DNA from: Candidatus Peribacteria bacterium
Lineage (GTDB): Bacteria; Patescibacteriota; Gracilibacteria; UBA1369; 2-02-FULL-48-14
Assembly (NCBI GenBank): GCA_943357175.1
Contig: CALRGE010000004.1
Coordinates: forward strand, 36,420 to 100,419
Direction: 5' to 3'
DNA: 64,000 nucleotides
Positions within the stretch are counted from its first letter, which is position 1. Every line of letters starts with the position of its first letter. The notes under the pieces are model-generated. The model saw nothing but the letters and a program-made list of their open reading frames with translations, was not told the DNA's origin and searched no databases. A program made the position numbers and the translations under genes. Shown piece after piece: positions 36,137 to 55,247 of this stretch.

Positions 36137-36142
36137 TCAAAC

Positions 36143-37126: not shown

Positions 37127-37142
37127 AATAACCAATACTTTT

Positions 37143-38962: not shown

Positions 38963-38989
38963 GCTCGTGTAAGTTAGCATGAAACTGAT

Positions 38990-39751
38990 CTAGTCACAAT
39001 TCTCCCATATAAACTCGAATAAAGCTTTCATTGTATCGGCCATCATTGGATCTTGAAGGAGCACTGCAATGTGTGTTTTTTCTCTTATTGAAAAATACAA
39101 AACAGTGTCGCCGTAAACGTGAATGTTTCCGGGCAGCGAATATTTTTTGGGAATGAATCGACGTTCCCGCATTTCATTCGGCTTGTTTACATTTTTTCCC
39201 TTTTCATCTGTTTTTCCAACAAGTACGCGTGCAAAAATTCCCTTTTTCATTCGCATTTTAATGAAAAAATCATCGTCATTTTTACGGATTTTTGGATCTT
39301 TTAAAAACTCATATGATGTAAAAATCAGAAGTTCCTTTATTCCTTCCTTAAAAAGGCATAAATTAAATGCTTCAATAACCTGGTCAATTCCTTCAAAAAA
39401 CTGAACTTTTGGCGCTATATTCCGTCTTTGATGAATTGAGCTTAGAATCGGCAGAATTTCTTCGATTTTACTTATATTTTCCTGCTTTTCTTCAATCGTT
39501 CTTTGCAGATATTGGAGTAGAGCTTGTGGCGATTTACAGGTATAAAATTGTGTATTTCTTTTGTATAACTTTCTAACAATTCCTCTCTCGCAAAGCTTAT
39601 CTAAGACACCTCTAGTTGTGGAACGCGGCGTATTTGTTGTGAGCGCAATTACAGATGCTGACTGCTCTCCCACATTTAATAATTGAAGATAAATTTTTGT
39701 CTCAAAATTATTTAGCCCGATGCTTTGTAAAATTGACTGTAAGTCTTTCAT
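38990..39751 (-). CDS. TrmB-family transcriptional regulator
   Basis: N-terminal wHTH LGLNNFETKIYLQLLNVGEQSASVIALTTNTPRSTTRGVLDKLCERGIV plus a TrmB-type C-terminal domain. Confidence 0.7.
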   Translation of the reverse strand: MKDLQSILQSIGLNNFETKIYLQLLNVGEQSASVIALTTNTPRSTTRGVLDKLCERGIVRKLYKRNTQFYTCKSPQALLQYLQRTIEEKQENISKIEEILPILSSIHQRRNIAPKVQFFEGIDQVIEAFNLCLFKEGIKELLIFTSYEFLKDPKIRKNDDDFFIKMRMKKGIFARVLVGKTDEKGKNVNKPNEMRERRFIPKKYSLPGNIHVYGDTVLYFSIREKTHIAVLLQDPMMADTMKALFEFIWENCD

Positions 39752-39833
39752 AGTAAGTGGCGAAATTGACCGCCAGATTGAAAGTGTATTCGTATCTTGC
39801 TTTTATGTCCACAGATTCTTAACCCCCTATCAC

Positions 39834-40394
39834 ATGAAGACATTAGAAATAGCCACCTTACCAATTGAAGTTCTCGAATTAGAACTACGAAAAGACCCAA
39901 CAATTGGGAATGAAATAAATCACAATAAGGAGAAAGTTGAAGATGTTCTAAGTGGTAATTTTAGAAAAATTGCCATCAAAAAGAAAGCGGAGGCACTTTG
40001 GACAATAGCGGCTGAGGGCAATATTGAAGCTATGTTGAGTGGGAAAAATGCAGTAGAAGCAATTTTTTTTGCGCAAAACGGTGGCGAAATTGTACCTCTG
40101 TGGGAGCTATATAAAACTTTGGATTTTTATGCTTACACCATGCACAATAACTTACTAGACCAAGGCTTTGCATATGAAAATTTGACCTGTGAGGAAGAAG
40201 TAAAACGTGCAATTTATGAAATGTCTATTCCTTTATCTGACAAAGATAAAGTTTTGGATGAAATTGATAAAGAAGGTGAAGCAGGTATGTATACAACTAC
40301 AGAGAGTTTCGTTGTTGGTGTTTTGAGAAAACTTGGCGCTCACTACTGGGCTAAACACGTTGTGCTTAGTTACAATGAAATAAATTCTAACTGA
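39834..40394 (+). CDS. hypothetical protein (186 aa)
   Basis: ORF with normal composition. Start set at the ATG at 39834, because the tracked 5' extension overlaps the trmB-like start. No motif recognised. Confidence 0.4.
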   Translation: MKTLEIATLPIEVLELELRKDPTIGNEINHNKEKVEDVLSGNFRKIAIKKKAEALWTIAAEGNIEAMLSGKNAVEAIFFAQNGGEIVPLWELYKTLDFYAYTMHNNLLDQGFAYENLTCEEEVKRAIYEMSIPLSDKDKVLDEIDKEGEAGMYTTTESFVVGVLRKLGAHYWAKHVVLSYNEINSN

Positions 40395-40464
40395 TTTTAG
40401 ATGAACAGCGCATAGACAAAAGTAACTTTAAGATTTAATTTGTTATTGTTTTATTTTTACTTAA

Positions 40465-41388
40465 ATGACAGTTAATAATTTTGATGAGGTAGGCGCACAA
40501 AGTATTGTGGATTTTTATTTTTTATACATAGATAAACTATATGAAAATCCGGTTTTTAAGAGACAAATTCTAAATTATCAATTTGAGATAAATCGAGATA
40601 TATCAAATGAAAAAGATTTGTTTAAAAATATCTTAAGTATATATCTTGAAGAAGCAAAGCTGACATTATCACTTTTAAATAATCATGATTTTACAAAGCA
40701 AATGTCATTTTTAGAGATTGGAGGAGGGTCAGGCTTAGTATACGGATTTCTAAAAAAACAGGGCTATAATATTTATGGAATTGAGCCGTGTGACTCTGGC
40801 TTTGATGGCTACTATAGTGCTGCTATAGAACTATTTAAAGTGATAGATGTTGATGCATCTAACTTTCGACCATTTTTAGCAAAAGATGTTGAGAAATTAG
40901 ACGCAAGTTTTGATGTGATTTTTTCTAACAATGTATTTGAGCATATTCCTGAACTTGAAGAGTCAATCGTATGCTTAAAAAAAATCTTAAAAGTAAATGG
41001 AATTATGATTCATAACACAGTAAATTATTTTATCCCTTATGAGCCTCATTTTCAGATGCTTTTATTGCCTTTTTTTCCAAGATATACAGAATTATTTAAA
41101 CCTAGCCTAAAAAAACTTGAACTTTGGAATGGATTAAATTTTATAACAACTCATAAATTAGCAAAGATGTGCCGAACAAATGGATTAAAAATTGATTTTA
41201 TGAAAGATAGGTTATTTAAGACATTTATAAGACTAGATAATGATCAAGCCTTTGCTAAACGACAAAAACTTTTTGTTAGCATATATAGATTTTTGAAATC
41301 AACTGGACTAATTAAGATCTTGAATAAGATTCCTATTGCGTTCACAACACCTATTACTTTTACAATTACACATCTAGCTAAAACTTAG
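40465..41388 (+). CDS. class I SAM-dependent methyltransferase
   Basis: FLEIGGGSGLVYGFL (motif I), GIEP, FDVIFSNNVFEHI. Confidence 0.7.
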   Translation: MTVNNFDEVGAQSIVDFYFLYIDKLYENPVFKRQILNYQFEINRDISNEKDLFKNILSIYLEEAKLTLSLLNNHDFTKQMSFLEIGGGSGLVYGFLKKQGYNIYGIEPCDSGFDGYYSAAIELFKVIDVDASNFRPFLAKDVEKLDASFDVIFSNNVFEHIPELEESIVCLKKILKVNGIMIHNTVNYFIPYEPHFQMLLLPFFPRYTELFKPSLKKLELWNGLNFITTHKLAKMCRTNGLKIDFMKDRLFKTFIRLDNDQAFAKRQKLFVSIYRFLKSTGLIKILNKIPIAFTTPITFTITHLAKT

Positions 41389-41927
41389 ATTAATAATTTC
41401 TCTAAGAGCAAATCGAATTTTGAGTAACCGGCTGATTGATTTATATGGCCGGCTCCGGGTACGAGCATCACTTTCACGTTAAGCAGCCCAGCAAGTTCTT
41501 CGGCTTTTTCAAGCTTAATGTATGGGTCGTTATCTGAATGGAAAATTGTGAAATTTTTGCAATTTTGTTTTATCTTTTCCCAGTTGAAGTTTTTTTGAGA
41601 AAAAGTTTTCATTGAGTCGTCGAATTTATTCCCAGCTAGGCCCACAAAACCTGCGACAAGAAATGCAGCTTTTGCAGTGTGTTTTTCAAGCACGTTCAAT
41701 ACAAAAGGTACTCCCAAACTGTGGCCGATAAAAATCGATTCGGGAGTGATAAATTCTTCGTAATTTTTTAATACCGTTAGCCAGTTTTCAAGAGTTTGAC
41801 CTTCAGGACTTGGAAATTGTGGAATGATCACATTGTGACCGTGTTTTTCTAGTTCTGTTTTAAGCCAGGGAAACCAGTTTTCTTCTGGTGTGCCGCCAAC
41901 GCCGTGGATGATGAAGATGTTAGTCAT
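41385..41927 (-). CDS. YdeN/RBBP9-family alpha/beta serine hydrolase
   Basis: IFIIHGVGGTPEENWFPWL, nucleophile elbow GHSLG, HSDNDPY, GAGHIN. 180 aa. Confidence 0.7.
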   Translation of the reverse strand: MTNIFIIHGVGGTPEENWFPWLKTELEKHGHNVIIPQFPSPEGQTLENWLTVLKNYEEFITPESIFIGHSLGVPFVLNVLEKHTAKAAFLVAGFVGLAGNKFDDSMKTFSQKNFNWEKIKQNCKNFTIFHSDNDPYIKLEKAEELAGLLNVKVMLVPGAGHINQSAGYSKFDLLLEKLLI

Positions 41928-41950
41928 ACCATTAGCCTATGTTCTAATTC

Positions 41951-41999
41951 ACCCCCGGCGGGGGTTTTGCAGGTTAGAAAGTGTTCCCGGGAACACTTT
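41951..41999. repeat. bipartite hairpin motif, copy 2
   Basis: ACCCCCG-G-CGGGGGT at 41951-41965, GTTTTGCAG at 41964-41972, AGAAAGTG at 41976-41983, and a 22-nt perfect palindrome AAAGTGTTCCC/GGGAACACTTT at 41978-41999 that abuts the ugd stop codon. Confidence 0.6.
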
Positions 42000-43297
42000 T
42001 ATCTCCCCACGCTCACGTATTTAAACCCAAGTTTTTCCATTTCTGCTGGCTGGTAGATATTTCTTCCGTCGAATACTGATTTTCCTTTCATTGAACTTGC
42101 AATTCGAGTGAGGTCGATTGCACGGAATTCGTCCCATTCTGTGACAATTAAAAGAATATCTGCACCGGTGGCGGCATCGTAAGGTGAAGGAAGATATTCT
42201 ATATTAGTTGTACCAAGAATTTTTTTTGCATTTTCAGCTGCAACAGGATCAAAAACGCGTAGGCGGGCGCCGGATTTTAACAGTTCAGGAAGAATTTCAA
42301 GGGATGGAGCTTCACGCATGTCATCTGTTTTTGGTTTGAATGCAAGCCCCCAAACTGCAATTGTGAGGCCGACAAGATCAGGGAATTCTTTGCGGATTTT
42401 CTCTACGATTATTTTCTTCTGTATTTGATTAACATCATTCGCCGCTTTGATAATTTTGAATTCGTAACCTTTATCACGACCAGTTTGAATGAAGGCGTTT
42501 ACATCTTTTGGAAAGCAACTTCCCCCGTAACCAATTCCGGCGTGTAAAAAACGTGGACCGATTCTATCGTCAAGTCCCATTCCCTTCGCAACCATTGTTA
42601 CATCTCCACCGGCAGCTTCACAGAAATTTGCGATTTCGTTGATGAACGAAATTTTTGTGGCGAGGAATGCATTTGATGCATATTTGATAATTTCTGCTGA
42701 ATGAATATCTGTGAAGAGTAGAGGCCTGCCGGCTCGAACTAGTGGAGAATAGAGTTTTTCCATCGCCTCGCGGGCTTTGTCACTTTCTACTCCACAAACT
42801 ATTCTGTCTGGGTTCAAAAAGTCCTTAACTGCAGAGCCTTCACGAAGGAATTCAGGATTGTCTACTACATCAAAAGGGTGTGTGGTTTGTGAGGCGATTA
42901 TATCTTTCACTTCATTGCTAGTACCTACAGGAACTGTAGATTTATTAACAAAAACTTTGTATCCATTTAAATTTTGACCGACTGATTTTGCCACAGCTCG
43001 AACTGCAGAAAGATCTGCTCTGTCATCACCACCTTGAGGTGTACCAACGGCTGAGAAAATAATTTCACAAGCTTCAATTGCAGATTTTAAATCGGTAGAA
43101 AAATTTAAACGACCTTCTTTGTAATTTCTCAAAACAAGCTCTTCAAGCCCTGGTTCGTAAATTGGAATTTCACCTTTTTTTAATCTTTCAATTTTTGCAG
43201 CATCAATATCAATACAAATTACGTCATTGCCTAGCTCTGCGAAGCATGTGCCAGTAACTAATCCAACGTATCCGGTACCAACGACAGTTATTTTCAT
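41999..43297 (-). CDS. ugd: UDP-glucose 6-dehydrogenase
   Basis: MKITVVGTGYVGLVTG, NPEFLREG, GYGGSCFPKD (catalytic Cys), AFKPKTDDMREAP. Confidence 0.9.
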   Translation of the reverse strand: MKITVVGTGYVGLVTGTCFAELGNDVICIDIDAAKIERLKKGEIPIYEPGLEELVLRNYKEGRLNFSTDLKSAIEACEIIFSAVGTPQGGDDRADLSAVRAVAKSVGQNLNGYKVFVNKSTVPVGTSNEVKDIIASQTTHPFDVVDNPEFLREGSAVKDFLNPDRIVCGVESDKAREAMEKLYSPLVRAGRPLLFTDIHSAEIIKYASNAFLATKISFINEIANFCEAAGGDVTMVAKGMGLDDRIGPRFLHAGIGYGGSCFPKDVNAFIQTGRDKGYEFKIIKAANDVNQIQKKIIVEKIRKEFPDLVGLTIAVWGLAFKPKTDDMREAPSLEILPELLKSGARLRVFDPVAAENAKKILGTTNIEYLPSPYDAATGADILLIVTEWDEFRAIDLTRIASSMKGKSVFDGRNIYQPAEMEKLGFKYVSVGR

Positions 43298-43355
43298 CGC
43301 TGGAACAATAAATGAGGGATTGGAAAAAGTCGAGCTTTTACGGTAGTCTTGCGCC

Positions 43356-44036
43356 GTGCATTATTCAAAATTTTCATTTTCAGATTTAGGATTCGTTTGG
43401 ACTGAGTCGATGCGAGGTAAAAGTTTACCAAGAGCATTACTTAATTTAAGTTTGAAAAAATATCCATTCGATAGATTAACAGGTAAAGTTATAGATTTAG
43501 GAGCAAAAAGTGATGGCTCAAGTTACTTTCGATTTCTTGAGAAAGATCCAAGCGCAGAAATGTTTTTTTGTGACTACTTTACCGAGGGGCCAAATTTGAT
43601 GAAGATTGACCTGGAGAAGCCATTTCCTGCGAGTTTGAGTGATTTTGACAATGTACTTTGTTTCAACACAATCGAGCATATTTTTAATACAGATAATTTA
43701 ATTTCTGAAAGTGCACGAATAATGAAAAAAGGAGGAAAATTTATTGGCTGTGTACCTTTTTTGTATCCTTATCACGCCGACCCTGATGATTATCACAGAT
43801 ATACACATTCAGCCTTGGAAAGAATTTTTGAAAAGCATGGGCTGAAAATGAAAAGAATTGTTTCGGTTGGAGTTGGGCCATTTATTTTGGGATTTCAAAC
43901 TACCCCTGCGCCGAAACTTTTAAGGGCAATTTTTCAGTCCGGATTATTTTTGATGGATTTAATTTGTAATTCTTATTACAAAAAATATGCTGGGAACTTC
44001 TGCTTGTTATATTTGTTTGAGGCAGTAAAATCTTGA
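43356..44036 (+). CDS. class I SAM-dependent methyltransferase
   Basis: [31 protein letters not shown]. The tracked start is a GTG; an in-frame ATG lies at 43410. Confidence 0.65.
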
Positions 44037-44042
44037 TAAATT

Positions 44043-44948
44043 ATGTCTAAAATTTTAGTTGCAGGCGGGGCGGGATTCATTGGAAGCCACTTAGTGGAAA
44101 GACTTTTAACTTTGGGGCATGAAGTTACGGCTGTAGATAATTTTGTAACTGGAAACTTAAAGAATCTTTCTCATATTGTTGGAAATTTGAAAGTTATTGA
44201 TCACGATATAACTATCCCTTTTGATGGAGAATTTGAAATTATTATAAATATGGCTTGCCCTGCTTCACCTGTCGATTATCAAAATATTCCGTTGGAGACA
44301 TTATGGGTTAGTGCGATGGGAACAAAAAATCTACTTGAAATTGCGCGAAAAAATAAAGCTAAGTTTTTGCATGCTTCAACTTCGGAAGTTTATGGTGATC
44401 CGCTTGTTCATCCTCAAAAAGAAGATTATTGGGGAAATGTTAATCCAAATGGACCACGGAGTTGCTATGACGAAGGAAAAAGATTTGCTGAAAGTTTGAT
44501 TGTAAATTATCAAAATGTTCATGGTGTAAATGCTAGAATTTTTAGAATTTTCAATACATATGGACCTCACATGCGAGCCAATGACGGAAGAGTTATTCCA
44601 AATTTTGTTAGCCAAGCAATGGCTGGTGAGCCAATAACAATTTATGGTGACGGCAAGCAAACTCGCTCCTTCTGCTATGTTGATGATTTAGTGGATGGGA
44701 TTATTAGCGTCATGAATGCTGAGAAATTTTCTGGACCTGTAAATTTAGGAAATCCAAAAGAAACGACTATTTTAGAATTGGCTGAGATGATTTTACGGTT
44801 GATGGACTCGAAAAGTGAAATTGTTTTTAAAGATTTACCGCAAGACGATCCAAAAATTAGGCAGCCGGATATAAGTAAGGCTCGCAAAGAATTGAACTTT
44901 GAGCCTAAAGTTGATTTAGAAAGTGGCCTAAGAAGAACATTTATTTAA
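44043..44948 (+). CDS. uxs: UDP-glucuronate decarboxylase (UDP-xylose synthase)
   Basis: [64 protein letters not shown] are UXS hallmarks. Confidence 0.85.
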
Positions 44949-44958
44949 ACCACATAAC

Positions 44959-45747
44959 ATGCCAGGCCGAAATAGTCATCCAATTTTCGTTAAAAAAATG
45001 TGCGACAGGAAAGGCATAATTGGTAGGTTTAGAGATATTCTGTCAGTAGGTGGAATTTCTTATTATATAAAATCTGAAGGAATTCAGACGCGAATTTATA
45101 TTTACAATTATTTTCACTTGCTGGCTGATGAAAATTTCAAATCGAAATGGGAAGTTAATTTATATTCAAGAGACGGGAAAATTGCGAAGAAATTAACTGG
45201 AGCTTTTGAGGAGGGTGAAACGGTGGTTTTAGATACCGCAGAAATTAGCGAGCTTGATGATTTTGGAGTCATTCACACTAAAATAAAATGTGCACATGGA
45301 ATGTTTGATCAACCTTATACAACAACTTTTTTTAATGAATATTATAGGCCGGATAGCACGAATCATGGGGTTTTTGCGCACAGCTTGGGTGCGCCTGCTG
45401 CGATTCATTATACCTACAACAGATATTCAAGCGGTTGGAGTTTAAAAAGCGGATTTAGACCTTATATGCTGATTGGTAGCGGTTGTAAATTTAATAAAAT
45501 TGGGCACGGTAAATGCACGCGCGCGAATTTAACTTTCATAAATTATAAGAAAGAAAAAATGTCACTGGAAATGGAAAGGTTGCGGCCTATGGAATCTCGC
45601 AGACTGGACTTGTTTGCAATATTACCTGGCCTGGAAGGGCATCTTTCAGATAAGGCATTTTCAATTGTGATTGAGGCGGAGAATTTGCTTTCTAAACCTT
45701 ATTTCTACCAAACTGATGCTAAATTTTTAATGGGAGAACACTTATGA
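44959..45747 (+). CDS. unknown protein, one copy of an unrecognised ~250-aa module (paralogue set A)
   Basis: Shares motifs and order with 45744-46649 and both halves of 47596-49152 (see findings). No signal peptide or TM segment. Confidence 0.6.
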   Translation: MPGRNSHPIFVKKMCDRKGIIGRFRDILSVGGISYYIKSEGIQTRIYIYNYFHLLADENFKSKWEVNLYSRDGKIAKKLTGAFEEGETVVLDTAEISELDDFGVIHTKIKCAHGMFDQPYTTTFFNEYYRPDSTNHGVFAHSLGAPAAIHYTYNRYSSGWSLKSGFRPYMLIGSGCKFNKIGHGKCTRANLTFINYKKEKMSLEMERLRPMESRRLDLFAILPGLEGHLSDKAFSIVIEAENLLSKPYFYQTDAKFLMGEHL

Positions 45748-46649
45748 ACGACTGGAAAAAAATTCTCGATTCAAAGCAAAAATGTGTTTTCAACAGCTAC
45801 ATTCATTTGAAAAAGCCTGATCATCGCACAAGTTTTTCTTATGTTAATGAAAATCCGATTCGAGAAATTGTGACTGCGATTTTTTTGGACTCGAATGGGA
45901 ATATACCAGAGAATTATGAGCCTTTTACTTGTGAACTTGATCCTGGTGAAGTAATAAAAATAGATGCCGGTGCGCTTTTGAAGCGTGATAATTTTGTTGG
46001 TAGCTCCATGTTAATAATCAGGCCTGCGGATCAAAATGAAACAATGATTATTAAAAATAAAGACTCGGTTTCGAGTTGGAGTTCACCTCAAACTTCCTGT
46101 GAAATTGGAACAGCCGCCTTCCCTTCTTTAAATATGAAAGGTGTGAAGGAAAATCAAAGTTACTACATGTTTTGTTCCGGAGTTACTTCTGATGAAAAGA
46201 AAAAAACACAGATTGTGGTGTTTAATCATTCAACCGATTCGGGATACGAAGATGAAGTGGAATTTAGTCCAAAATTGCAGAATTTAAAAGGAAAAAGTTT
46301 GATTGGGAAAAATCTTAAGGTAAAGCCTTTTGGAGTTATGATATTAGATAGCGATGAAGTTTTTGGAGAAGAGGGTCGAAACCTTTTGGCGGAAACCAGC
46401 GGTCGTGGCTCTTTAACAATGTTTCATAGAGGCCACATTTTTAGTTCTTTCTTCTTTCATGTTGACCGAGAAACTGAAAATTTAATCTGTGGAAGCCACA
46501 CTCAGCCACCGATGGGAGTTTTCATGAATCCCGTGGCACTTCAACATTACTGGTTGACTTCTATCGCGCCGACAGTACCATTCTCCAGTCAAATTGTTTC
46601 ACTTTTAAGAAAAATTAAATACTATGGGAAATCTCCAGATAATTCGTGA
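45744..46649 (+). CDS. unknown protein, one copy of the same module plus ~45-aa tail
   Basis: ATGA overlap with the upstream gene. Motifs FLDSNGNI and RDNFVGSSMLII, module end ICGSHTQP. Confidence 0.6.
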   Translation: MNDWKKILDSKQKCVFNSYIHLKKPDHRTSFSYVNENPIREIVTAIFLDSNGNIPENYEPFTCELDPGEVIKIDAGALLKRDNFVGSSMLIIRPADQNETMIIKNKDSVSSWSSPQTSCEIGTAAFPSLNMKGVKENQSYYMFCSGVTSDEKKKTQIVVFNHSTDSGYEDEVEFSPKLQNLKGKSLIGKNLKVKPFGVMILDSDEVFGEEGRNLLAETSGRGSLTMFHRGHIFSSFFFHVDRETENLICGSHTQPPMGVFMNPVALQHYWLTSIAPTVPFSSQIVSLLRKIKYYGKSPDNS

Positions 46650-47382
46650 ATTGATTATTCCTGAAAAAGGACGATACATAAATTCACCTTGGCAATATTT
46701 TAAGCAGTCAAGATTTTTCTTATGGAGTCTGTTTTCAGTGAGGGCGATTTTTTATTTCACAATCAGCGGCTTCAAATTTAAGCAGATAGAAATAACAGAA
46801 GGCAATAAGCATAATATGGCAGTTGTTGCGCATAATCTATGGGAGAATTTGGCTGTCTTTAATTTTGGAAGAGGGCGTGTGGAATTCATGCTTTGGCCAC
46901 TTCGTTTGGTGCCAACCGTGAAACTAAATGGAAAAACTCTTTGTATCGGCCCAAAAAATGAGGGCGAACTTTTATGCTACTGGGCACATGGTTTCAAATT
47001 TAAAAATATCACGGGTGTGGATCTTTTTTCTTACAGCCCAAAGATAAAAGTAATGGATTTACACGATTTGAAATTTGCTGATGATAGTTTCGATACGATT
47101 TCTTGCGGTTGGGTTTTAAAATATTGTTACGACCTTAAAAAAGCGATTTCCGAAATTGTTAGAGTTTCAAAAGCTGGTGCATTAATAACTATTGGTTTTA
47201 CTGTGGAGAGCGCTCAATCAATGAAAGATAACGATTGGGTTGCAGATCAAATTCCAGGTGGAATGGCACAGGTTTTGGAAATTTTCGGCAAGCATGTTGG
47301 TCAAATTTATTGGAAATCTGAAGATCTAAATAAAGACGGCCGCGGAAAAAGCTGTGTTGTTTTTAGAATCAAGAAAGATTAA
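46624..47382 (+). CDS. divergent class I SAM-dependent methyltransferase-like protein
   Basis: KTLCIGPKNEGELL...ITGVDL (degenerate motif I), FDTISCGWVLKYCYD, SKAGALITIGF. Confidence 0.5.
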   Translation: MGNLQIIRELIIPEKGRYINSPWQYFKQSRFFLWSLFSVRAIFYFTISGFKFKQIEITEGNKHNMAVVAHNLWENLAVFNFGRGRVEFMLWPLRLVPTVKLNGKTLCIGPKNEGELLCYWAHGFKFKNITGVDLFSYSPKIKVMDLHDLKFADDSFDTISCGWVLKYCYDLKKAISEIVRVSKAGALITIGFTVESAQSMKDNDWVADQIPGGMAQVLEIFGKHVGQIYWKSEDLNKDGRGKSCVVFRIKKD

Positions 47383-47595
47383 AAAATCTAGAGCTCTTTA
47401 CATGTTAGCCTCTAATATGTGATGGGGCGGTAAATTTTCCGCTGATTATTGTTAAAATGTAGAATATGGATAGCCAAAAAAATTTAAAGTGCTGAAATAT
47501 GCATAAGTCTTTTGCCTTCAGTTAGTATGCTGAAAGGAATGCCGACCAGTTTGAGTTTGCAAAAATAATGCCAGAGGCATATCTTCTGGTAAATT

Positions 47596-49152
47596 ATGAA
47601 ATCTTACTACAAACATCTCACATCAATTGAAGCCCCTGACAAACCTATATGGCAAACACGCAAACCGGTTTACCGTGCCTCAGCAATTTTTCCCGTCATG
47701 GAGAATGAAATCTTTTCCTCAAAAGTCGTTTTTATGGGCTATTGGATTTTAAAACGTGACATCAAAGAAATAGCACTACTTTATACTTTGAGAAATCAGC
47801 ATGGAGAAATAGTAAATCGCAGTAGTATGACTATCGACAAACCGAAAGCATACTCAATAAAAATTTCAGATTTAACTAAAGAAAAAAACTTCGTTGGATC
47901 AATTGAACTTGAGATTTTTTCAACTCAAAATCTTGTATTTCCATATCCGGGATTCGTACTCAGCTATTACAATAAAAATTTCACAACTGCAGTCCATACA
48001 ACAGGTAGAATTTATAATGACATCGAAGATCTTAAAGAAAATAATGAAACAAACGTTGCAGAATCGGGTTTTGATATTTATCCAAACTCTGAAATAGAAC
48101 CCTTTTTCACATTTACAAACGGGCCTTTTGAAGAGAAAAATACAGAAATAAAATATATATTGATAAATCATGAAAATAAAGCATCGACAGGTAGTTTTAG
48201 ACTTGAGACTCTTCGTCCATATGAAACTACATTTGTATTTCTTAAAAAATTCATGGATCTTAAATTTCTAGGTGATCAGCCTGGAGTAATAAAAATCTCT
48301 CATAATTTTCGTGGTTTCTTCCCTCGTTTCGTTGCTGGCAACTTTCAAAATGATTTCCCTGTCGCGAGCATAACTCACACTTATTACGATACAAGCGCCT
48401 CTTGCAGCAATGCTGACTATTGGAGAAAAATAGATCAAAATTTCCATGACTCCTCGGTTTATATTCCACTTTTCATAAATGATGATTTCTATACTGATGT
48501 GGTTTTTTACCCAATCTACTCACCTTCCGAGTTCCAAATTGATCTACAGTTTTTTGATGGAAGTGGCAATATTCTAAAAGAAATTCTAAATTTTACCAGA
48601 ATAAATAGTAAAAAAACTACCCTACAAAAGCTTAATTTTAAAGAAATCGCGGAAGAGATTAATGGTGCTGTCGGAGTGAACATAATTCAAAATGCTACAG
48701 AAGGAAATCTATACCCTGCAAGAATAAAAATGGGCCTCAATGTAGGACAAACAAATAAACCGGTAAAAATTCCTTGTAACATTTGTTTTAATGCCCAGGT
48801 TGGAAATCCTGAAGTAGCAAAAAAAACTCGTAGCTTTAAATGGGCACCACTACTCAACGGCGGAAATTCCGTGATTGTAATTACAAATTCTGCACCGATG
48901 AAAAATTATTATCGCTCTGCAACTGTGAAATTGAAATTTTTCAGAGAAAAAGATGATAATCAAATCGAAAAAACAATAGAAATACAGACTTTTGGACAAG
49001 CAAGAATTGAAGTGGATAAATCTCCTGATCTGATTCTATTTTTTGAGAATACAACTGGTTGGATAGTTGCTGAATCTGAGAATCCATATATTTTTCTTTG
49101 GTATTTTGATATATCAAAAAGCGGCGCAATTGCAGGCGATCATTGCTTTTAA
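47596..49152 (+). CDS. unknown protein, two tandem copies of the same ~250-aa module
   Basis: N-half: LLYTLRNQHGEI, KNFVGSIELEIF, end SITHTYY. C-half: DLQFFDGSGNI, INGAVGVNII, end IAGDHCF-stop. 518 aa. Confidence 0.6.
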   Translation: MKSYYKHLTSIEAPDKPIWQTRKPVYRASAIFPVMENEIFSSKVVFMGYWILKRDIKEIALLYTLRNQHGEIVNRSSMTIDKPKAYSIKISDLTKEKNFVGSIELEIFSTQNLVFPYPGFVLSYYNKNFTTAVHTTGRIYNDIEDLKENNETNVAESGFDIYPNSEIEPFFTFTNGPFEEKNTEIKYILINHENKASTGSFRLETLRPYETTFVFLKKFMDLKFLGDQPGVIKISHNFRGFFPRFVAGNFQNDFPVASITHTYYDTSASCSNADYWRKIDQNFHDSSVYIPLFINDDFYTDVVFYPIYSPSEFQIDLQFFDGSGNILKEILNFTRINSKKTTLQKLNFKEIAEEINGAVGVNIIQNATEGNLYPARIKMGLNVGQTNKPVKIPCNICFNAQVGNPEVAKKTRSFKWAPLLNGGNSVIVITNSAPMKNYYRSATVKLKFFREKDDNQIEKTIEIQTFGQARIEVDKSPDLILFFENTTGWIVAESENPYIFLWYFDISKSGAIAGDHCF

Positions 49153-49225: not shown

Positions 49226-49837
49226 TTAAAGCTTTTCGCCGATTGCAAGTATCGATTTTGTTCCTCCTTTGATTGCGGAAGCAAGTCTCCATTTTAGAAA
49301 CTCCGGTAATTTCCAGTAAAGTTTTGAGCGACAAATCAAGCCGGGTCCAAGGAAAATTGTTTTGAAGCCATACATATTCAAAGTCGTGCTTAGACCCTTT
49401 GGTGTATATGGCTTGCAATGAGTTGGATCATTGAAAAAATTTTTGAAATCCATTTGCCAATTTGGAGTTCGAATAATTACAACTCCGCCTTTTTTGAGGA
49501 TTCGATTTGTCTCTTTCATAATCCTGTCCGGAGTTCGGATATGCTCAAAAACCGCATTCATTGTCACCACGTTAATTGATTCGTCATCATATGGCAACCT
49601 GTCTGTTTCAAGATTGCAACGATCGAAATCTATGCCCTCAGCTTCCATTCCGGCTGCACGACATGCCTTGCTGAAATCATCTGTTCCGCAACCAAGATCA
49701 AGAATTTTTGATTTAAATTTTTCACCTAAAATCCCCGTGTAAGTTCTAATGTATCGATTATTATAATCAAACCAAGCGTTTAAGCTTTTTTCAACTCGCA
49801 TTTTTTCTTCGCGATCTTTTCGGTAGGATTCAATCAT
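49226..49837 (-). CDS. class I SAM-dependent methyltransferase
   Basis: ILDLGCGTDDF (motif I), GIDF, VVTMNAVFEHI, LKKGGVVIIRTPN. Confidence 0.75.
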   Translation of the reverse strand: MIESYRKDREEKMRVEKSLNAWFDYNNRYIRTYTGILGEKFKSKILDLGCGTDDFSKACRAAGMEAEGIDFDRCNLETDRLPYDDESINVVTMNAVFEHIRTPDRIMKETNRILKKGGVVIIRTPNWQMDFKNFFNDPTHCKPYTPKGLSTTLNMYGFKTIFLGPGLICRSKLYWKLPEFLKWRLASAIKGGTKSILAIGEKL

Positions 49838-50535
49838 ATTTCGTTTTGCTTAATTAAATCCAAAGTCTCGCCCAAGTCAACAATAGTATCATTTTTATAT
49901 AGCCTTGTGTAGATTTTATTCATAAATTCGAAGTCTGCTATCGTGTCGACTGAAAGCTTGAAAGGTTTTGTAAAATTGGATTTTAGGAATTTATTTCCAA
50001 CTGGTAAATAACCAATTTTCCCAAAAGAAGGATTCTCACGAATATATTTTGTAACGTGCTCATGATATGGTTTCTCAACCGTAAAATTCTGAATTCTTTT
50101 TAGAGTTGCAAGTGAAATGAATTCGAATCCCTCGTAGACGTGGTCTATTTTGGGATCGTAAAAAACGTAATCAAGATTTTCTGTGATGCCTTTTTCTATC
50201 ATTTTTTCAATTTGAACTGGATCAATTAAAGCTGCATCGCAAGTAATGCGGATTATATTATCGGCTTGGAATTTTTCAGCAGCGCTTATGAAGCGCTCAA
50301 GAACATCTTCTTCCGAGCCACGAAAAAATAATAAATTTTCACTTTTTGCAAAGCACTCAATTTTGTCGTCATTTTGTTTTTCGCTGGTTGCAATTCCAAT
50401 ATCATCAAGGTTTTTAACCTGTTTGAGACGATTTACGACATGCCATATCAAAGGTGTACCCGCTAAATTCATGAAAATTTTACCAGGAAGTCTCGTAGAG
50501 CCTGTTCTAGCTTGAATTATAGCGATTGTCTTCAT
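49834..50535 (-). CDS. SpsF-type cytidylyltransferase (CTP_transf_3) - candidate CMP-nonulosonate synthetase
   Basis: AIIQARTGSTRLPGKIF...GTPLIWHV, IRITCDAALIDP. Confidence 0.7.
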   Translation of the reverse strand: MKTIAIIQARTGSTRLPGKIFMNLAGTPLIWHVVNRLKQVKNLDDIGIATSEKQNDDKIECFAKSENLLFFRGSEEDVLERFISAAEKFQADNIIRITCDAALIDPVQIEKMIEKGITENLDYVFYDPKIDHVYEGFEFISLATLKRIQNFTVEKPYHEHVTKYIRENPSFGKIGYLPVGNKFLKSNFTKPFKLSVDTIADFEFMNKIYTRLYKNDTIVDLGETLDLIKQNEI

Positions 50536-51227
50536 GCAAAATCTCTTATAATCATGAATGCCTCCGCATTATTGAAACCGGATTCGCTTCCACGAACTTT
50601 TGCCAAAGCCCGTAAAACTTCTGGACTACGCGGGTGTGGATCTGTGCGAACTTCATTTTTATAAGCCACCATCGCCTTTATTTTGTTTTCTAAGTCTTCG
50701 TTTGAAAGTTCCATGTAAAAATTAGGTTCCCACATTGTTGGCTTCAAATAACCTGTACTTGAGGGGATTTCAGAAGAAACTAAAGCAATGTGACTACCTA
50801 CGCCTGGTCTTGAAGCTACTACTGCCGCTTCATGACAATATTGATGGTCAATATTTGTGCAGAATCTGTGATGTGTAAAAATCACATCCGGTTTTACTTT
50901 TACAAGCAAGTCTTCGAGCCAATGATTTAATTCGAGTCGGGTTCCTTTATCCATTTCATTATCAGGAAAATTTCCTGTGAAAATATTTTCCATTTTCACT
51001 CCAAGAATAGTCATTGCCTCTTGAAAATGTTCAGTAAGTAAATCCTTTTCGGCGTTCATTGAATTTTCGTCCTTTTGATTCCGACGAGCGTAAACTCCAG
51101 CACCAGGAATTGCCACAAAAATTTCATTACCAGCTTTCGTAAGTTTCGAAATTGTTCCACCAGCTCCGAGAGTTTCATCATCCGGGTGAGCAAAGAATGC
51201 CAGAATTTTCTTATTTTTTAGATCCAT
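50532..51227 (-). CDS. PIG-L/LmbE-family N-deacetylase
   Basis: FFAHPDDETLGAGGT and a downstream HxxH-type cluster (THHRFCTNIDHQYCHE). Confidence 0.8.
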   Translation of the reverse strand: MDLKNKKILAFFAHPDDETLGAGGTISKLTKAGNEIFVAIPGAGVYARRNQKDENSMNAEKDLLTEHFQEAMTILGVKMENIFTGNFPDNEMDKGTRLELNHWLEDLLVKVKPDVIFTHHRFCTNIDHQYCHEAAVVASRPGVGSHIALVSSEIPSSTGYLKPTMWEPNFYMELSNEDLENKIKAMVAYKNEVRTDPHPRSPEVLRALAKVRGSESGFNNAEAFMIIRDFA

Positions 51228-51918
51228 GTTTTTTAGTTAATACCTCTGCGCTGATTGTTACTTGAGCAGTAAGTTTATCACCTTTTTTTTCTGCGTCAAA
51301 AAACTCCAACCTGAATTTTCCCATTTTCAGAAAAGCTTTTGGGTAAGTTTCGGCATCGAGCATTCTAATGAAGTTATGAAATTCTTCTATATTTTTTGCT
51401 TTGAATTCTTTCAAATCGCTTTGTTCCGGTTTTCGTCTTTTGAAGTTTACAGTTTTGCCTAATTGCTCTTTTGGCTGAGGATTTTTCGTAATTATTTCAT
51501 TAATCATTTCAACAACTACTAGCGCATTTTTTTCATAAATTTCTTGCGCTCTACCTTTCAATGAGATGGCTTTCTTCATATAAATCGGGCCGGCATCCAG
51601 TTTATCAATCATACGAAGTGCAGAAAGTTTTGATTCAGTTTTGCCCTCAATAATAAGATTTTGTATTGGACTTCCGCCACGGCCATAAGGCAAATCAGTC
51701 TCATGAAAACAAACGCACTCATAAGTATTTAGAATTTTTGTGGGAACAATTTGGCTCCAATGAGGAAAGAAAATGTAGCGCGGTTGAATTTTAGCCAAAT
51801 TCTCTAAATTCAAATCCTCCGGATTTGTGATCAAATGCCATTTTCCTGGAAACTTTGAAATCTTCTCTTTGAAGAGTTTTATATTCCAATCCTTAATTGT
51901 TACAACGAGGTAATTCAT
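51211..51918 (-). CDS. formyltransferase-fold protein (Fmt N-domain-like) with atypical catalytic motif
   Basis: ECVCFHETDLPYGRGGSPIQ aligns with the Fmt motif [20 protein letters not shown]. His72 and the later Asp (KLDAG) are present, but Cys70 replaces the Asn. Confidence 0.55.
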   Translation of the reverse strand: MNYLVVTIKDWNIKLFKEKISKFPGKWHLITNPEDLNLENLAKIQPRYIFFPHWSQIVPTKILNTYECVCFHETDLPYGRGGSPIQNLIIEGKTESKLSALRMIDKLDAGPIYMKKAISLKGRAQEIYEKNALVVVEMINEIITKNPQPKEQLGKTVNFKRRKPEQSDLKEFKAKNIEEFHNFIRMLDAETYPKAFLKMGKFRLEFFDAEKKGDKLTAQVTISAEVLTKKHGSKK

Positions 51919-53015
51919 TTAAAGAAAGATTTAATTGCGTTGCAGATTTCTACAAGCTCAGACTCTTTTAAACCTGGAAATAGAGGGATCGTTAGTTGAG
52001 TTTTTTCATAAAGATCTGCGTTTGGCAATGAAGTTTCAGCATATCCGTTTTCGCGATAATAAGGATGTCGATAAACACAAGGATAGTGGAAATTAGACTG
52101 AATTTCCTTGGTCTTTAGAAAGTCATGAAGGGCGCATCTTTTATCCGCATCTTTCACACGAATCACAAAAATATGCCATGAAGAAATGTTTCCTTTAATT
52201 TCGGTCGGCAAAATAATTCCATCAACATTTGAAAGTTCTTTTTTGTAAATTTCAACTAATGTTTTTCGTTTCACAATAAAATTGTCGAGCTTTTTCATTT
52301 GACTGGTCCCAAGTGCACATTGAAAATCTGTGATTCTATAATTGAAGCCCATTTCTGTCATTACATTAAAGCCTTTTTCATTTTTTGCTACTCCGTGACT
52401 ACGGAGCGATTTCAGTTTTTTAAACATGGTCTCGTCGTCGGTTAAAACCGCACCACCCTCTCCAGTTGTAATTGATTTAACAGGGTGAAAACTCAAAGTA
52501 GACAAATCTGCAAAGCTACCGGCCTTTTGTCCATTTTGTGAAGCTCCAAGTGAGTGAGCTGCGTCATCAATCAGCACCAAATTGTGTTTTTTGGCAATTG
52601 CGGATAATCGCTGCCATTCACAAGGCTGACCGGCAAAATCTACTGCAACAATCGCCTTCGTTTTTGGAGTAATCAACGCTTCAATTTTTTCTTCATCGAT
52701 ATTGTAAGTGTCAAGTCTAATGTCACAAAAAACCGCCTTCGCTCCACAAAGAATCATCATATTTGTTGTCGCAACAAAAGTGTTTGGAGTTGTTATAATT
52801 TCGTCGCCGACAGAAATTCCAGCTGCTAAATAAGCCAAATGCAATGCTGTAGTTCCGTTTGAAACCGCAACAGCAAATTTTGAGCCCGTGTAGTCACACA
52901 AATCTTTTTCAAAATCACTAACTGCAGAACCCTGAGTCAAAAAATTGCCTTTCAGAACCGAAACAACAGCTTGAATATCATCTTCATCGATTGTCTGTCG
53001 GCCGTAGGGAATCAT
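51915..53015 (-). CDS. pseC: UDP-4-keto-6-deoxy-HexNAc aminotransferase (PseC-like, DegT family)
   Basis: IPYGRQTIDEDDI, LTQG, GDEIITTPNTFVAT, LIDDAAHSLG, SFHPVKSITTGEGG. Collinear with PseC as I remember it and adjacent to pseB. Confidence 0.8.
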   Translation of the reverse strand: MIPYGRQTIDEDDIQAVVSVLKGNFLTQGSAVSDFEKDLCDYTGSKFAVAVSNGTTALHLAYLAAGISVGDEIITTPNTFVATTNMMILCGAKAVFCDIRLDTYNIDEEKIEALITPKTKAIVAVDFAGQPCEWQRLSAIAKKHNLVLIDDAAHSLGASQNGQKAGSFADLSTLSFHPVKSITTGEGGAVLTDDETMFKKLKSLRSHGVAKNEKGFNVMTEMGFNYRITDFQCALGTSQMKKLDNFIVKRKTLVEIYKKELSNVDGIILPTEIKGNISSWHIFVIRVKDADKRCALHDFLKTKEIQSNFHYPCVYRHPYYRENGYAETSLPNADLYEKTQLTIPLFPGLKESELVEICNAIKSFFK

Positions 53016-53016
53016 G

Positions 53017-54009
53017 CTAGATGATTAATTCTTTGATAATTTTTGCAAAATCTTCCTTTGTTAACCACTTATCATTTCCATCACTGGTATATTCAAATCT
53101 TCCGTGAGTTCGGGCCCCCATTGAGGTGTATTTTGCATAATTGTAAGTATTTGAAATTTTAAATTCAGGCAAAATCACAAAGTATTTTTCGAGCTCAATT
53201 GCTCTAGATGATTCTTGTTCAGTTACAAGAATTTCATGTAGTTTTTCACCCGGCCTTATTCCAATAATTTCCTTTTCAGCTCCAGGTGCAATCGCATCAA
53301 ACATATCAACAATCTTCATTGAAGGCATTTTTGGAACAAAAGTTTCACCTCCCTCCATATGTTCTAAAGCAAATGAAACCAGATCAAAACTTCCTTCAAT
53401 TTTCAACCAGAAACGAGTCATTTCCAAATCTGTAACTGTAACTTTTTTAATATTCGGTTGTGCAAGTAGAGTCTCTATAATACTCCCTCTGCTTCCGATC
53501 ACATTTCCATAACGCACAACTGCAAATTTTGTCTTTTCAGGCGAGTAAAAATTACCCGCAATAAATAATTTTTCTGCACAAAGCTTTGTTGAGCCATAAA
53601 GATTCACTGGTAAAGCTGCTTTATCAGTTGAAACCAAAAGAACCTTTTGAACTCCACAGTCGATAGAAGCATCGATCACATTCTGAGTTCCCAGAATATT
53701 TGTTTTTACTGCTTCATATGGATTGTATTCAAGCATCGGCACATGTTTCAAAGCCGCCGCATGAACAACAATATCAACATTATATAAAGCTCGTATTAGC
53801 CTTTCTTTATCTCGGACATCACCTATAAAAAATCTGAGTCTAGGGTCTGAGAACTCTTTTTGCATTTGAAAATGCTTGAATTCATCTCTACTGAAAACAA
53901 TAACTCTTTTAGCCTTAGAGTTTTTTAGTAGAAATTTAATGAAATTTTTACCAAAGGAGCCGGTCCCACCTGTTATTAAGATTGATTTATCGTCTAGGAA
54001 TGAAAGCAT
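53017..54009 (-). CDS. pseB: UDP-GlcNAc 4,6-dehydratase, short FlaA1/PseB type
   Basis: ILITGGTGSFGK, VFSRDEFKH, RFFIGDVRD, HAAALKHVP, STDKAA.PVNLYG.TKL, VRYGNV.GSRGS, MTRFW, GIRPGEKLHE. Near collinear with Helicobacter FlaA1 from memory. Confidence 0.85.
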   Translation of the reverse strand: MLSFLDDKSILITGGTGSFGKNFIKFLLKNSKAKRVIVFSRDEFKHFQMQKEFSDPRLRFFIGDVRDKERLIRALYNVDIVVHAAALKHVPMLEYNPYEAVKTNILGTQNVIDASIDCGVQKVLLVSTDKAALPVNLYGSTKLCAEKLFIAGNFYSPEKTKFAVVRYGNVIGSRGSIIETLLAQPNIKKVTVTDLEMTRFWLKIEGSFDLVSFALEHMEGGETFVPKMPSMKIVDMFDAIAPGAEKEIIGIRPGEKLHEILVTEQESSRAIELEKYFVILPEFKISNTYNYAKYTSMGARTHGRFEYTSDGNDKWLTKEDFAKIIKELII

Positions 54010-54018
54010 ATTGATTTG

Positions 54019-54046
54019 ATTTTACTCTTTAAAATTAAGATTGCAA
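54019..54046 (-). promoter_or_regulatory. sigma70-like promoter for the pseB operon, near-leaderless
   Basis: Minus strand: TTGCAA (54041-54046), 16 nt, TAAAAT (54019-54024), 9 nt, ATG (54009). Confidence 0.35.
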
Positions 54047-54078
54047 ATTAGCGAGCATTATCACATTATATTTAGAAC

Positions 54079-54107
54079 TTGTCAAATCTAATTTTATCTG
54101 GTATTAA
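54079..54107 (+). promoter_or_regulatory. sigma70-like promoter for the NeuB-family operon, leaderless geometry
   Basis: TTGTCA (54079-54084), 17 nt, TATTAA (54102-54107), 6 nt, ATG (54114). Confidence 0.35.
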
Positions 54108-54113
54108 TGAGCT

Positions 54114-55247
54114 ATGAATGAAGAACGAGATGCATTTCTAGCCAGTCTTCCGAAGAATTTGAGCGGAAAGGCTGTTGATGTGGTGAATATTGGGGGAAGA
54201 TTAGTTGGGAAAGATCAGCCTTGTTTTATTATTGTAGAGGTTGGAGCTAATCATCGCGGTGATATTAAAAATGCTCTTCGTTTGATTGATTTTGCGGCGG
54301 AAACCGGAGCAGATTGTGTAAAATTTCAGCATATAAAAGCTGCAGGTATTGCTGCTGATACACCTGTGAATATTAATTGGAAAGGTAAAAGCGGATTTAG
54401 TACTTTTGCAGAATTTTATAAGCCTTCGGAGATGCCTTATGAATGGACTGAAGAATTGATGAAGCATGCGAAAGAAAAAGGAATTATGTTTTTGTCTACG
54501 CCTTTTGATAAAGAGTCGGTAGATTTGTTGGATTCGCTTGGCGTGCCGGCATTCAAAGTGGCGTCTTATGAAATGATTGATGATATTCTTCTTAGATACA
54601 TAGCGAAAAAGGGGAAACCGATAATTTTATCTACCGGAATGGCTTATTTGGAAGAAGTTGCGCATGCGATTCGAGTTATAAATGAGGAAGGAAATTACGA
54701 TATTATGCTAACACACTGCACCTCAATGTATCCGCCGAAAGGGTTTGAAGATTTGAATTTGAAGGCAATTTCAACTTTGCGAGAAGCATTTAAATTGCCG
54801 GTTGGCTATTCTGACCACTCAAATCCAAAATCAATGGTGGGTCCTATTGCTGCTGTGGCTTTAGGTGCTTGTATTTTTGAAAAACATTTTACTGATGAAC
54901 GCGAGGGTGGAAGTCATGATGATGCAAATTCGGTACAGCCTGAAGAATTTAAAAGGTTGGTTACTGAAATACGAAATACAGAGAAAGCAATGAGCCGAGA
55001 TGGAATTAAACAGCCTATATCACGTGAAACGCATGAATTGTTTAATGATGAAATTATTGATATTTGGGCAAGACGATCGATTTATGCCGCTAAAGATATT
55101 GCGGAGGGCGAAGTGATTACGGAGGATTGCTTGGTAACTTTGAGGCCTTGGGGCGGAATTGAGCCGAAACATCATCATTTGGTTGTGGGTCGAGTTGCGA
55201 AGAAGGCTGTCAAAGCCAGAGCACCAATTACTTGGGATGACTTATGA
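54114..55247 (+). CDS. NeuB/PseI/LegI-family nonulosonic acid synthase with C-terminal SAF domain
   Basis: CFIIVEVGANHRGD, ADCVKFQ, STPFD, FKVASYE, ILSTGM, LTHCTSMYP, GYSDHS, and SAF-domain tail RRSIYAAKDIAEGEVIT. Confidence 0.8.
   Translation: MNEERDAFLASLPKNLSGKAVDVVNIGGRLVGKDQPCFIIVEVGANHRGDIKNALRLIDFAAETGADCVKFQHIKAAGIAADTPVNINWKGKSGFSTFAEFYKPSEMPYEWTEELMKHAKEKGIMFLSTPFDKESVDLLDSLGVPAFKVASYEMIDDILLRYIAKKGKPIILSTGMAYLEEVAHAIRVINEEGNYDIMLTHCTSMYPPKGFEDLNLKAISTLREAFKLPVGYSDHSNPKSMVGPIAAVALGACIFEKHFTDEREGGSHDDANSVQPEEFKRLVTEIRNTEKAMSRDGIKQPISRETHELFNDEIIDIWARRSIYAAKDIAEGEVITEDCLVTLRPWGGIEPKHHHLVVGRVAKKAVKARAPITWDDL

Follow-up and report, generated by a model that had tools for sequence, protein, structure and literature searches.

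An unannotated all-beta module that occurs in pairs beside methyltransferase genes in nonulosonic-acid loci of a Candidatus Peribacteria bacterium and other lineages

A stretch of 64,000 nucleotides (nt) from contig CALRGE010000004.1 of a Candidatus Peribacteria bacterium, hereafter the window, was analyzed with a focus on three adjacent genes at 44959-49152, here called A, B and C, in which a first-pass annotation made from the sequence alone had recognized no known fold or family. The three open reading frames (ORFs) were confirmed at the coordinates given by that annotation, with products of 262, 301 and 518 amino acids (aa). Gene A (44959-45747, + strand) encodes a single module of the N-module type, with the stop preceded by G-E-H261-L (His codon 45739-45741). 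Gene B (45744-46649, +) encodes one module at aa ~4-254 with a terminal H252 (codon 46497-46499), followed by a conserved helical tail of ~45 aa. Gene C (C518; 47596-49152, +) encodes two modules in one chain, namely C1 (aa 1-264; 47596-48387, +; H261 codon 48376-48378) and C2 (aa 265-518; 48388-49152, +), which ends A-G-D515-H516-C-F-stop (H516 codon 49141-49143). Between B and C lies MT252 (46624-47382, +), a class-I S-adenosylmethionine (SAM) methyltransferase of 252 aa that matches Methyltransf_11 in Pfam, and convergent with C lies MT203 (49226-49837, -), a Methyltransf_23-type methyltransferase of 203 aa. Genes A and B overlap by 4 nt (ATGA) and B and MT252 by 26 nt. MT252 and C are separated by 213 nt (47383-47595), within which a terminator-like hairpin at 47426-47443 (+) is consistent with C forming its own transcription unit. 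A promoter and terminator scan of the region, in which terminator-like sites were no commoner than in shuffled sequence, was not used as evidence.

The first-pass annotation had read the three genes as four copies of one module. Pairwise comparison of A, B, C1 and C2 by BLASTP and phmmer, a check that it had proposed, gave no significant pair, the best being B and C1 with 20% identity over 199 aa (E~0.1 in a 4-sequence database), and profiles were therefore needed in order to evaluate the likeness. Relatives were collected for each family, amounting to more than 600 full-length sequences of ~525 aa for C, five for B and six for A, together with further copies from individual loci. Shallow family profiles gave weak probabilities of 4-38%. 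The profile-profile alignments were collinear over 180-230 columns for all six pairs (z 2.3-6.9), with scores above those of 60 block-shuffled templates and a reversed template, C1-C2 alone being equalled by one shuffle. An exhaustive hidden Markov model (HMM) search with the B family returned 43 representative clusters out of 1.84 billion proteins, and a distant B tier was made up of proteins of ~290-320 aa in which the module terminates in [GAS]-D-H-T-R-P. Adding the distant members rendered the weak signal unambiguous. The B superfamily then matched C2 at 97.9% (E 4.4e-13, 230 columns; z = 20.4) and C1 at 95.2% (E 2.5e-8, 231 columns; z = 12.9), and the distant B members matched A at 91.2% (E 1e-6, 227 columns; z = 12.2), the real score being reached in 0 of 60 shuffles in each of these three comparisons. 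The HMM comparison that the annotation had called for, with E-values from 4.4e-13 to 1e-6, thus bears out the four-fold likeness and indicates that A, B, C1 and C2 are homologous copies of one unannotated, all-beta module of ~250 residues. The non-significant pairwise comparisons would fit a chance resemblance of beta-rich proteins that form no family; the probability of this is practically nil in view of profile-profile probabilities of 91-98%, z of 12-20 over shuffled and reversed controls, motifs in register, a common order of secondary structure and conserved synteny, and the reading was rejected on the deep profile comparisons and shuffle controls. The best match of B is C2, and the motif H-[ST]-x-G is common to A and C1 alone; A thus appears to resemble C1, and B to resemble C2.

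The ordered motifs listed in the first-pass annotation align in register across the modules and include a [DN]-G turn, an N-F-V-G-S strand that is poorly kept in C2, an N-x-S strand, a P-F-G strand and a terminal G-x-H. Few positions are conserved throughout the four module families; the turn Gly is conserved at 97-100%, and one Asn is kept except in A, where it is Ser. The module-terminal His, part of the conserved His claimed earlier, shows 100% conservation in each of the four families (A H261, B H252, C H261 and C H516). The residue before it is always one of E, S, T and D, those in the window being A E260, B S251, C1 T260 and C2 D515, with the result that each module pair contains two terminal His and exactly one adjacent carboxylate. 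The YY...H[ST]xG motif is likewise real and confined to A and C1, in which A H141 and C H134 are aligned. Members of the A family have an invariant motif of their own, C176-x6-H183-x2-C186, plus extra His; neither C1 nor the A-position module of a distant locus, L097, described below, has the Cys motif. In C about 25 charged or polar residues are invariant, and the C1 invariants comprise H134, H236 and H261 along with many Arg, Lys, Glu and Asp. As judged from sequence conservation, invariant His, Asp and Glu, from which an H-x-[DE]...H metal triad within one domain would have to be built, are present in the modules. No 19-residue window of transmembrane-grade hydrophobicity and no signal-peptide-like N-terminus was found in A, B or C, in agreement with the cytoplasmic location proposed earlier.

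An AlphaFold2 model of C built from 118 sequences was of high confidence, with a predicted local distance difference test (pLDDT) score of 93.8 and a predicted template modelling (pTM) score of 0.92. It is one compact chain, almost entirely beta, with four sandwich-like subdomains at residues ~27-134 and 155-265 in C1 and ~286-399 and 413-516 in C2, with strands and a single short helix in matching order in both halves. The model of A and B concatenated, for which alignment rows were unpaired, was of low confidence (pLDDT 58, pTM 0.41); in it, the predicted secondary structure of A and B follows the order seen in C1 and C2, and B has two additional helices at its C-terminus. A Foldseek search of the C model against the Protein Data Bank (PDB) found no chain- or module-level match, with query TM-scores of at most 0.17. 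The matches were generic immunoglobulin (Ig)-like stacks and the N-terminal sandwich domains of GH2 glycosidases. The sole good domain-level match was the 116-aa sandwich 1nc7 (TM1070), at a target TM-score of 0.64 and a root-mean-square deviation (rmsd) of 3.4. A search of BFVD, a viral structure library, likewise found only generic beta-sandwich stacks. A cupin or double-psi fold had been put forward for checking in the first-pass annotation and was not seen, the best 50 Foldseek PDB matches holding no cupin or dioxygenase and no double-psi fold being found.

Profiles of A, B and C found no relatives among PDB sequences and nothing above cut-off in Pfam or NCBIfam, where the best E-values were 0.03-0.2; ten further superfamily members had no Pfam match for the module part, and literature searches found no description of the module family. 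The earlier statements that the family is undescribed and its fold unrecognized therefore hold, since no branch has a Pfam, NCBIfam or PDB sequence match and no module-level match to C was found in the PDB. The features that define membership of the new superfamily are common to A, B, C1 and C2, each consisting of ~250 aa with two beta-sandwich subdomains, the turn Gly and the terminal His. The name DUF2961/GH172, carried by P0030 in UniRef, was considered and rejected: there was no DUF2961 match at E <= 0.1, and no GH172 structure among the Foldseek PDB matches for C.

Judged by gene order and profile matches, A, B and MT252 form a conserved triad in three divergent lineages. In the first of these (loci L001-L003) the order is A, B, an MT252-type gene, a convergent 203-aa methyltransferase gene and a nonulosonic-acid operon; A and B are adjacent with a 4-nt overlap, and neither a C gene nor ugd or uxs was found there. 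MT203 comes directly after the A-B-MT cassette in these loci, so in the window C has been inserted between the two methyltransferase genes. A second and more divergent lineage comprises L010/L014, L012 and L013; here the gene after the A-like one encodes a B-like domain in frame with an MT252-type methyltransferase, a fusion protein of 547-568 aa, and the two genes overlap by 4 nt, as seen in L012. Such B::MT fusions were found in L010, L012 and L013 and in six representative matches (P0133-P0136, P0140 and P0141), of which P0141 has B joined to a different methyltransferase domain with a canonical GxGxG motif and represents an independent fusion event. The third lineage (L097-L099, a 276-kb marine scaffold) has a 255-aa gene (u255), a distant B-like gene and a methyltransferase gene. 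The product of u255 is a module of the superfamily (hhalign 88% to A and 95% to the B superfamily) that ends N-H-F-stop, and the methyltransferase shares 34% identity with MT252 and likewise has the unusual LCIGPRNE motif. Its neighbors are Wzm, Wzt with a Wzt_C domain, ugd, DegT, a PseB-like short-chain dehydrogenase/reductase (SDR), a radical-SAM gene, WbqC, a CMP-transferase and NeuB. A scan of genome contigs with the B family gave no match, and for most of the distant ~300-aa members the genomic context is limited by short contigs.

The MT252 orthologues follow B in L001-L003 (70-76% identity) and are fused to B in L012, L013 and L010 (41-46%). The MT252 type carries a conserved LCIGP[KR]NE[GA]E in place of the usual GxGxG SAM motif (in the window, L012 7801-9444 and L097 8046-8822), as well as a conserved aromatic and basic N-terminal extension of ~100 aa that serves as linker where B and MT are fused. 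The closest relative of solved structure, by a weak match, is a phospholipid N-methyltransferase (E 7e-4). The methyltransferase-like gene that the first-pass annotation saw interleaved between the module genes is indeed present and belongs to Methyltransf_11, but it is not incidental, being a constant third member of the triad that is fused to B in several lineages.

Two further observations concern the fusion lineage. A reductase of the FNR type (FAD_binding_6 and NAD_binding_1) of 228-234 aa is encoded directly upstream of A in L012, L013 and L008-L010/L014; it is missing from the window, from L001-L003 and from the common neighbors of C, and was rejected as a universal partner on account of its absence from the window and L001-L003. 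An MsbA-like ABC exporter gene precedes the cassette in L012, L008 and L009 (the upstream regions being L012 4462-6998 and L013 6318-6995), and in L012 the cassette is surrounded by membrane glycosyltransferase-like genes.

Gene C was scanned in one genome per species and recovered at 80 loci in Bacteroidota, Parachlamydiaceae, Paenibacillus/Cohnella, SAR11, Rhodobacteraceae, Roseibium, Omnitrophota, Gammaproteobacteria, Planctomycetota and Thaumarchaeota, with full-length identities of 33-55% and a single match at 81%. The latter, the closest relative of C518, is encoded in a 'Candidatus Peribacteria' metagenome-assembled genome (MAG; L015 3566-5119). The next relatives are at most 55% identical, and a seed search of the 10-kb L015 contig showed no counterpart of the nonulosonic-acid genes found in the window, a picture that suggests recent transfer of a single gene among candidate-phyla bacteria. 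Within 4 kb of C, a CMP-transferase or NeuB was found at 42 loci, a PseB-like dehydratase at 36, DegT at 34, a Methyltransf_23-type methyltransferase at 31, a TylF-type methyltransferase at 27 and PseG or an acetyltransferase at 24. Dehydratase, aminotransferase, synthase and CMP-transferase occur as a set close to C in 26-32 of 56 large loci. Most C loci take the form of compact islands for nonulosonic-acid biosynthesis and are devoid of export genes. A TylF- or Methyltransf_23-type methyltransferase gene immediately adjoins C in half of the loci that have a gene on each side (35 of 70), and a methyltransferase or pathway gene does so in 41 of these 70, the counts being lower bounds because the labels derive from single seeds; the methyltransferase adjacency spans Omnitrophota, Bacteroidota, Gammaproteobacteria, SAR11 and Roseibium. 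Homologues of A, B or MT252 were found near C in no other locus, so only this window and its identical contigs have the two systems next to each other. A local paralogous expansion, as proposed earlier, is therefore not borne out; what lies in the window is two separate systems side by side, a rare A-B-MT cassette and a widespread single-chain C, which occur together in no other locus examined.

In the window, the genes that follow MT203 form a nonulosonic-acid cluster. The Pfam assignments are a CMP-transferase (49834-50535, -), a PIG-L deacetylase (50532-51227, -), a formyltransferase (51211-51918, -), a DegT aminotransferase (51915-53015, -), a PseB/LegB-like Polysacc_synt_2 dehydratase (53017-54009, -) and a NeuB synthase (54114-55247, +), so that dehydratase, DegT, NeuB and CMP-transferase lie together at 49834-55247. 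Downstream of this core are GNAT, SDR, PylC-like ATP-grasp and HAD genes and, further on, a Wzx-type flippase and a Capsule_synth gene. The core occurs in the same order in L002, and the core set is also found near the A-B cassette of L097. Taken over all loci, gene content indicates that the conserved context of the modules is a nonulosonic-acid gene set of the pseudaminic or legionaminic type together with methyltransferases. The deacetylase and formyltransferase are arranged as in a legionaminic-type cluster of Ca. Kuenenia, and methylated, formylated and free-amine forms are reported to occur already as CMP-sugars, with tailoring, methylation included, in the cytoplasm (preprint 10.64898/2026.04.20.719630). 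At least six class-I methyltransferase genes are found in the glycan locus of the window (27471-28190, 40465-41388, 43356-44036, 46624-47382, 49226-49837 and 63083-63832), a number that suggests a heavily methylated product.

Upstream of A lies a 9-kb block (36128-44948) that is missing from the otherwise syntenic loci L001 and L002 and that, from this comparison, looks like an insertion into the glycan locus. It contains genes for an LD-carboxypeptidase, two SDRs, a TrmB regulator, an unannotated 224-aa ORF, a methyltransferase, a serine hydrolase, ugd (41999-43297, -), a second methyltransferase (43356-44036, +) and a uxs-like SDR (44043-44948, +). The last of these ends 10 nt before A, and the two are probably co-transcribed in this window. 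As ugd and uxs do not adjoin A-B in L001-L003 or in L012 and L013, a link to UDP-xylose or UDP-glucuronate was rejected as a conserved feature of the modules. The UDP-xylose synthase context noted in the first-pass annotation is thus peculiar to the window; the modules do lie in sugar loci, as was stated there, but the pathway is that of a nonulosonic acid. Similarly, the co-occurrence survey suggested there was positive for methyltransferases, by way of the triads, the fusions and 35 of 70 C loci, and negative for uxs and ugd next to A-B in L001-L003, L012 and L013.

Gene arrangement indicates that the modules work in pairs, encoded either by adjacent overlapping genes or as one chain, because A and B are adjacent in L001-L003 and in L012 and L013, two modules stand in tandem in L097 and C is full-length in more than 600 relatives. 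The gene adjacencies and fusions indicate that the pair is physically and genetically coupled to SAM methyltransferases, a coupling that is not universal for C. Based on the pair as the unit, on the methyltransferase adjacency and fusions and on the cytoplasmic nonulosonic-acid setting, we propose that the module pair acts as a partner of a SAM methyltransferase in the cytoplasmic tailoring of a nonulosonic acid or nucleotide-sugar precursor, in a 'modify, then methylate' sequence. We assign this reading a probability of about 0.5. According to this proposal, A and B would form a heterodimer from overlapping, co-translated genes, of which the single-chain C would be the fused equivalent, and the pair would act alongside the methyltransferase in the cytoplasm. 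It would bind the sugar nucleotide, and the conserved His with neighboring acidic and Asn residues would create, expose or present an acceptor group that the attached or adjoining methyltransferase would then methylate. Heterodimer formation, catalysis, substrate and reaction are the inferred parts of this proposal. An enzymatic activity of the modules is plausible on the basis of one invariant His per module, the dense invariant charged residues in C1 and the 33-55% identity maintained between archaea and bacteria.

Several results weigh against this proposal. In about half of the C loci no methyltransferase gene adjoins C, and in Paenibacillus and Cohnella (L059, L062 and L071) C is flanked on both sides not by methyltransferase genes but by genes for aminopeptidase-like proteins of ~430-445 aa. 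The thaumarchaeal and parachlamydial C loci have no obvious nonulosonic-acid genes within 8 kb. The fold is built of generic beta-sandwiches, which are more often binders than catalysts, and no enzyme fold was matched. Because the A+B model was of low confidence, the heterodimer is without structural support, and the equivalence of A and C1 stems from one motif and gene order and not from score, A scoring slightly better against C2.

The sandwich fold and the fusions would in fact be equally well accounted for if the module pair were a non-catalytic specificity or scaffold subunit, that is, a beta-sandwich platform that stabilizes the methyltransferase and recognizes the sugar or glycan, with a role like that of Trm112 or of a carbohydrate-binding module. 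This is the main rival and, in our estimate, possible if on the doubtful side. Its all-beta sandwich architecture with only generic structural matches of the Ig or carbohydrate-binding-module type, the fusion to two different methyltransferases and the constant methyltransferase adjacency all speak in its favor. It is harder to reconcile with the half of C loci that lack an adjoining methyltransferase, and with a pattern of conservation typical of active sites: the only polar residue invariant across the four families is the His preceded by D, E, S or T, and many Arg, Lys, Glu, Asp and His are invariant in C1. A further reading is a stand-alone tailoring enzyme of the same pathway, such as an epimerase or isomerase with His as acid/base or a metal-dependent hydroxylase, in which case the methyltransferase link would reflect consecutive steps in a pathway. 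The FNR-type reductase directly upstream of A in the fusion lineage (L012, L013 and L008-L010/L014), the invariant C-x6-H-x2-C and extra His of the A family and the two terminal His with one adjacent carboxylate per pair, which are compatible with a 2-His-1-carboxylate site, are in line with such an enzyme. We regard it as unlikely, since the reductase is missing from the window, L001-L003 and the common C neighbors, the Cys motif is not shared by C1 or by the A-position module of L097, the Foldseek search matched no fold of the cupin or oxygenase kind, and recurrent in-frame fusions argue for more than a pathway neighborhood.

The modules could also serve as a device for glycan-end recognition or chain termination, where the methyltransferase caps the non-reducing end as in ABC-dependent O-antigen systems, in which the methyl cap is read by the C-terminal domain of Wzt. 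The triad of L097 adjoins Wzm and Wzt with its Wzt_C domain, and L012 adjoins an ABC exporter, as would be expected for such a role. It is very unlikely overall, given the Wzx-type flippase of the window, the lack of export genes at most C loci and the report of methylated CMP-sugars, by which methylation can precede polymerization (preprint 10.64898/2026.04.20.719630). The proposal of a methyltransferase partner that modifies a nonulosonic-acid precursor was also extended into a far more specific version, for which the odds are long. In this version the module pair would be the founder of a new enzyme superfamily with a 2-His-1-carboxylate metal centre across the pseudo-dimer interface of a double beta-sandwich scaffold, the candidate residues being A E260-H261 with B H252, and C1 H261 with C2 D515-H516. 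The enzyme would hydroxylate or otherwise activate the CMP-nonulosonic acid; in some lineages it would draw electrons from the FNR-type reductase, and capping of the product would fall to the fused or adjoining methyltransferase. If true, this would amount to a new route to methoxy- and methyl-modified sialic-acid-like sugars, extending from SAR11 and Thaumarchaeota to Bacteroidota and Chlamydiae.

Three other features of the window were recorded. A 1599-aa ORF at 7255-12054 (-) has no Pfam match at E <= 1e-4 and lies between cell-wall genes of the ftsW/murG type and a BRO-N gene. The latter, at 12567-13478 (-), encodes a BRO-N domain protein among chromosomal genes just before the glycan locus; the domain is typical of phage and mobile-element proteins. 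A conserved protein of 585-639 aa, with only a weak DUF1616 match in Pfam below cut-off, is encoded at 29208-31127 (-), with counterparts at L001 1584-3503 and L002 1511-3268, and accompanies a glycosyltransferase/aminotransferase operon in the window, L001 and L002.

Nonulosonic acids such as pseudaminic acid, legionaminic acid and their relatives decorate flagella, capsules, lipopolysaccharide and S-layers and shape phage susceptibility, immune recognition and surface charge. To our knowledge, the core pathways of their synthesis are known and most enzymes that make the modified forms are not. The modules constitute a conserved superfamily without annotation, solved structure or characterized member, whose C form alone comprises more than 600 clusters from marine SAR11 and ammonia-oxidizing archaea to soil Bacteroidota, Paenibacillus and environmental Chlamydiae. 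With four invariant His, defined triads and culturable hosts (Spirosoma, Hymenobacter and Paenibacillus), they are targets in the search for a missing tailoring step and perhaps for a new catalytic scaffold.

Among known systems, the proposed role is closest in kind to PtmG and PtmH of Campylobacter jejuni, a pair in which an amidotransferase converts a group on legionaminic acid and a methyltransferase then methylates it (cited in preprint 10.64898/2026.04.20.719630). Both cases have a tailoring step coupled to a SAM methyltransferase in a nonulosonic-acid cluster and at the level of the nucleotide sugar (preprint 10.64898/2026.04.20.719630). There is no relationship in sequence or fold, and the partner described here is an all-beta pair of modules that is sometimes fused to the methyltransferase. 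PtmG is a member of the WbqC family, of which L097 carries a gene. Methylated acyl forms of pseudaminic acid occur in Campylobacter with genetics that are unexplained, and Cj1295, which is required for di-O-methylglyceroyl-pseudaminic acid, resembles the modules as an accessory gene of a pseudaminic-acid locus tied to a methylated modification (PMC3068675). Cj1295 belongs to a different protein family, and no Campylobacter homologue of C was found among the matches listed. The aminopeptidase-like neighbors of C in Paenibacillus and Cohnella (~430-445 aa) may be related to Cj1295.

By analogy, the modules may also be compared with Trm112, a zinc-knuckle activator of ~15 kDa for class-I RNA and protein methyltransferases, which is likewise a small non-Rossmann partner tied to a class-I methyltransferase. 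The modules, in contrast, are double sandwiches of ~250 aa that come in pairs and belong to a sugar pathway, and no similarity to Trm112 was detected. In structure, two consecutive subdomains of C loosely resemble the N-terminal sugar-binding and Ig-like domains of GH2 glycosidases (Foldseek probability <= 0.75), but at query TM-scores <= 0.17 and an rmsd of 16-18 Å; the modules have no catalytic TIM barrel and no motifs in common with these enzymes. One C subdomain superposes on TM1070, for which the title of entry 1nc7 gives no function. In their logic the modules would thus be like modify-then-methylate pairs and methyltransferase activator subunits, and in sequence and fold they are neither. 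They are best described as a new protein superfamily in a probable accessory or tailoring role within a well-known type of pathway, with a minority chance of representing a new catalytic scaffold.

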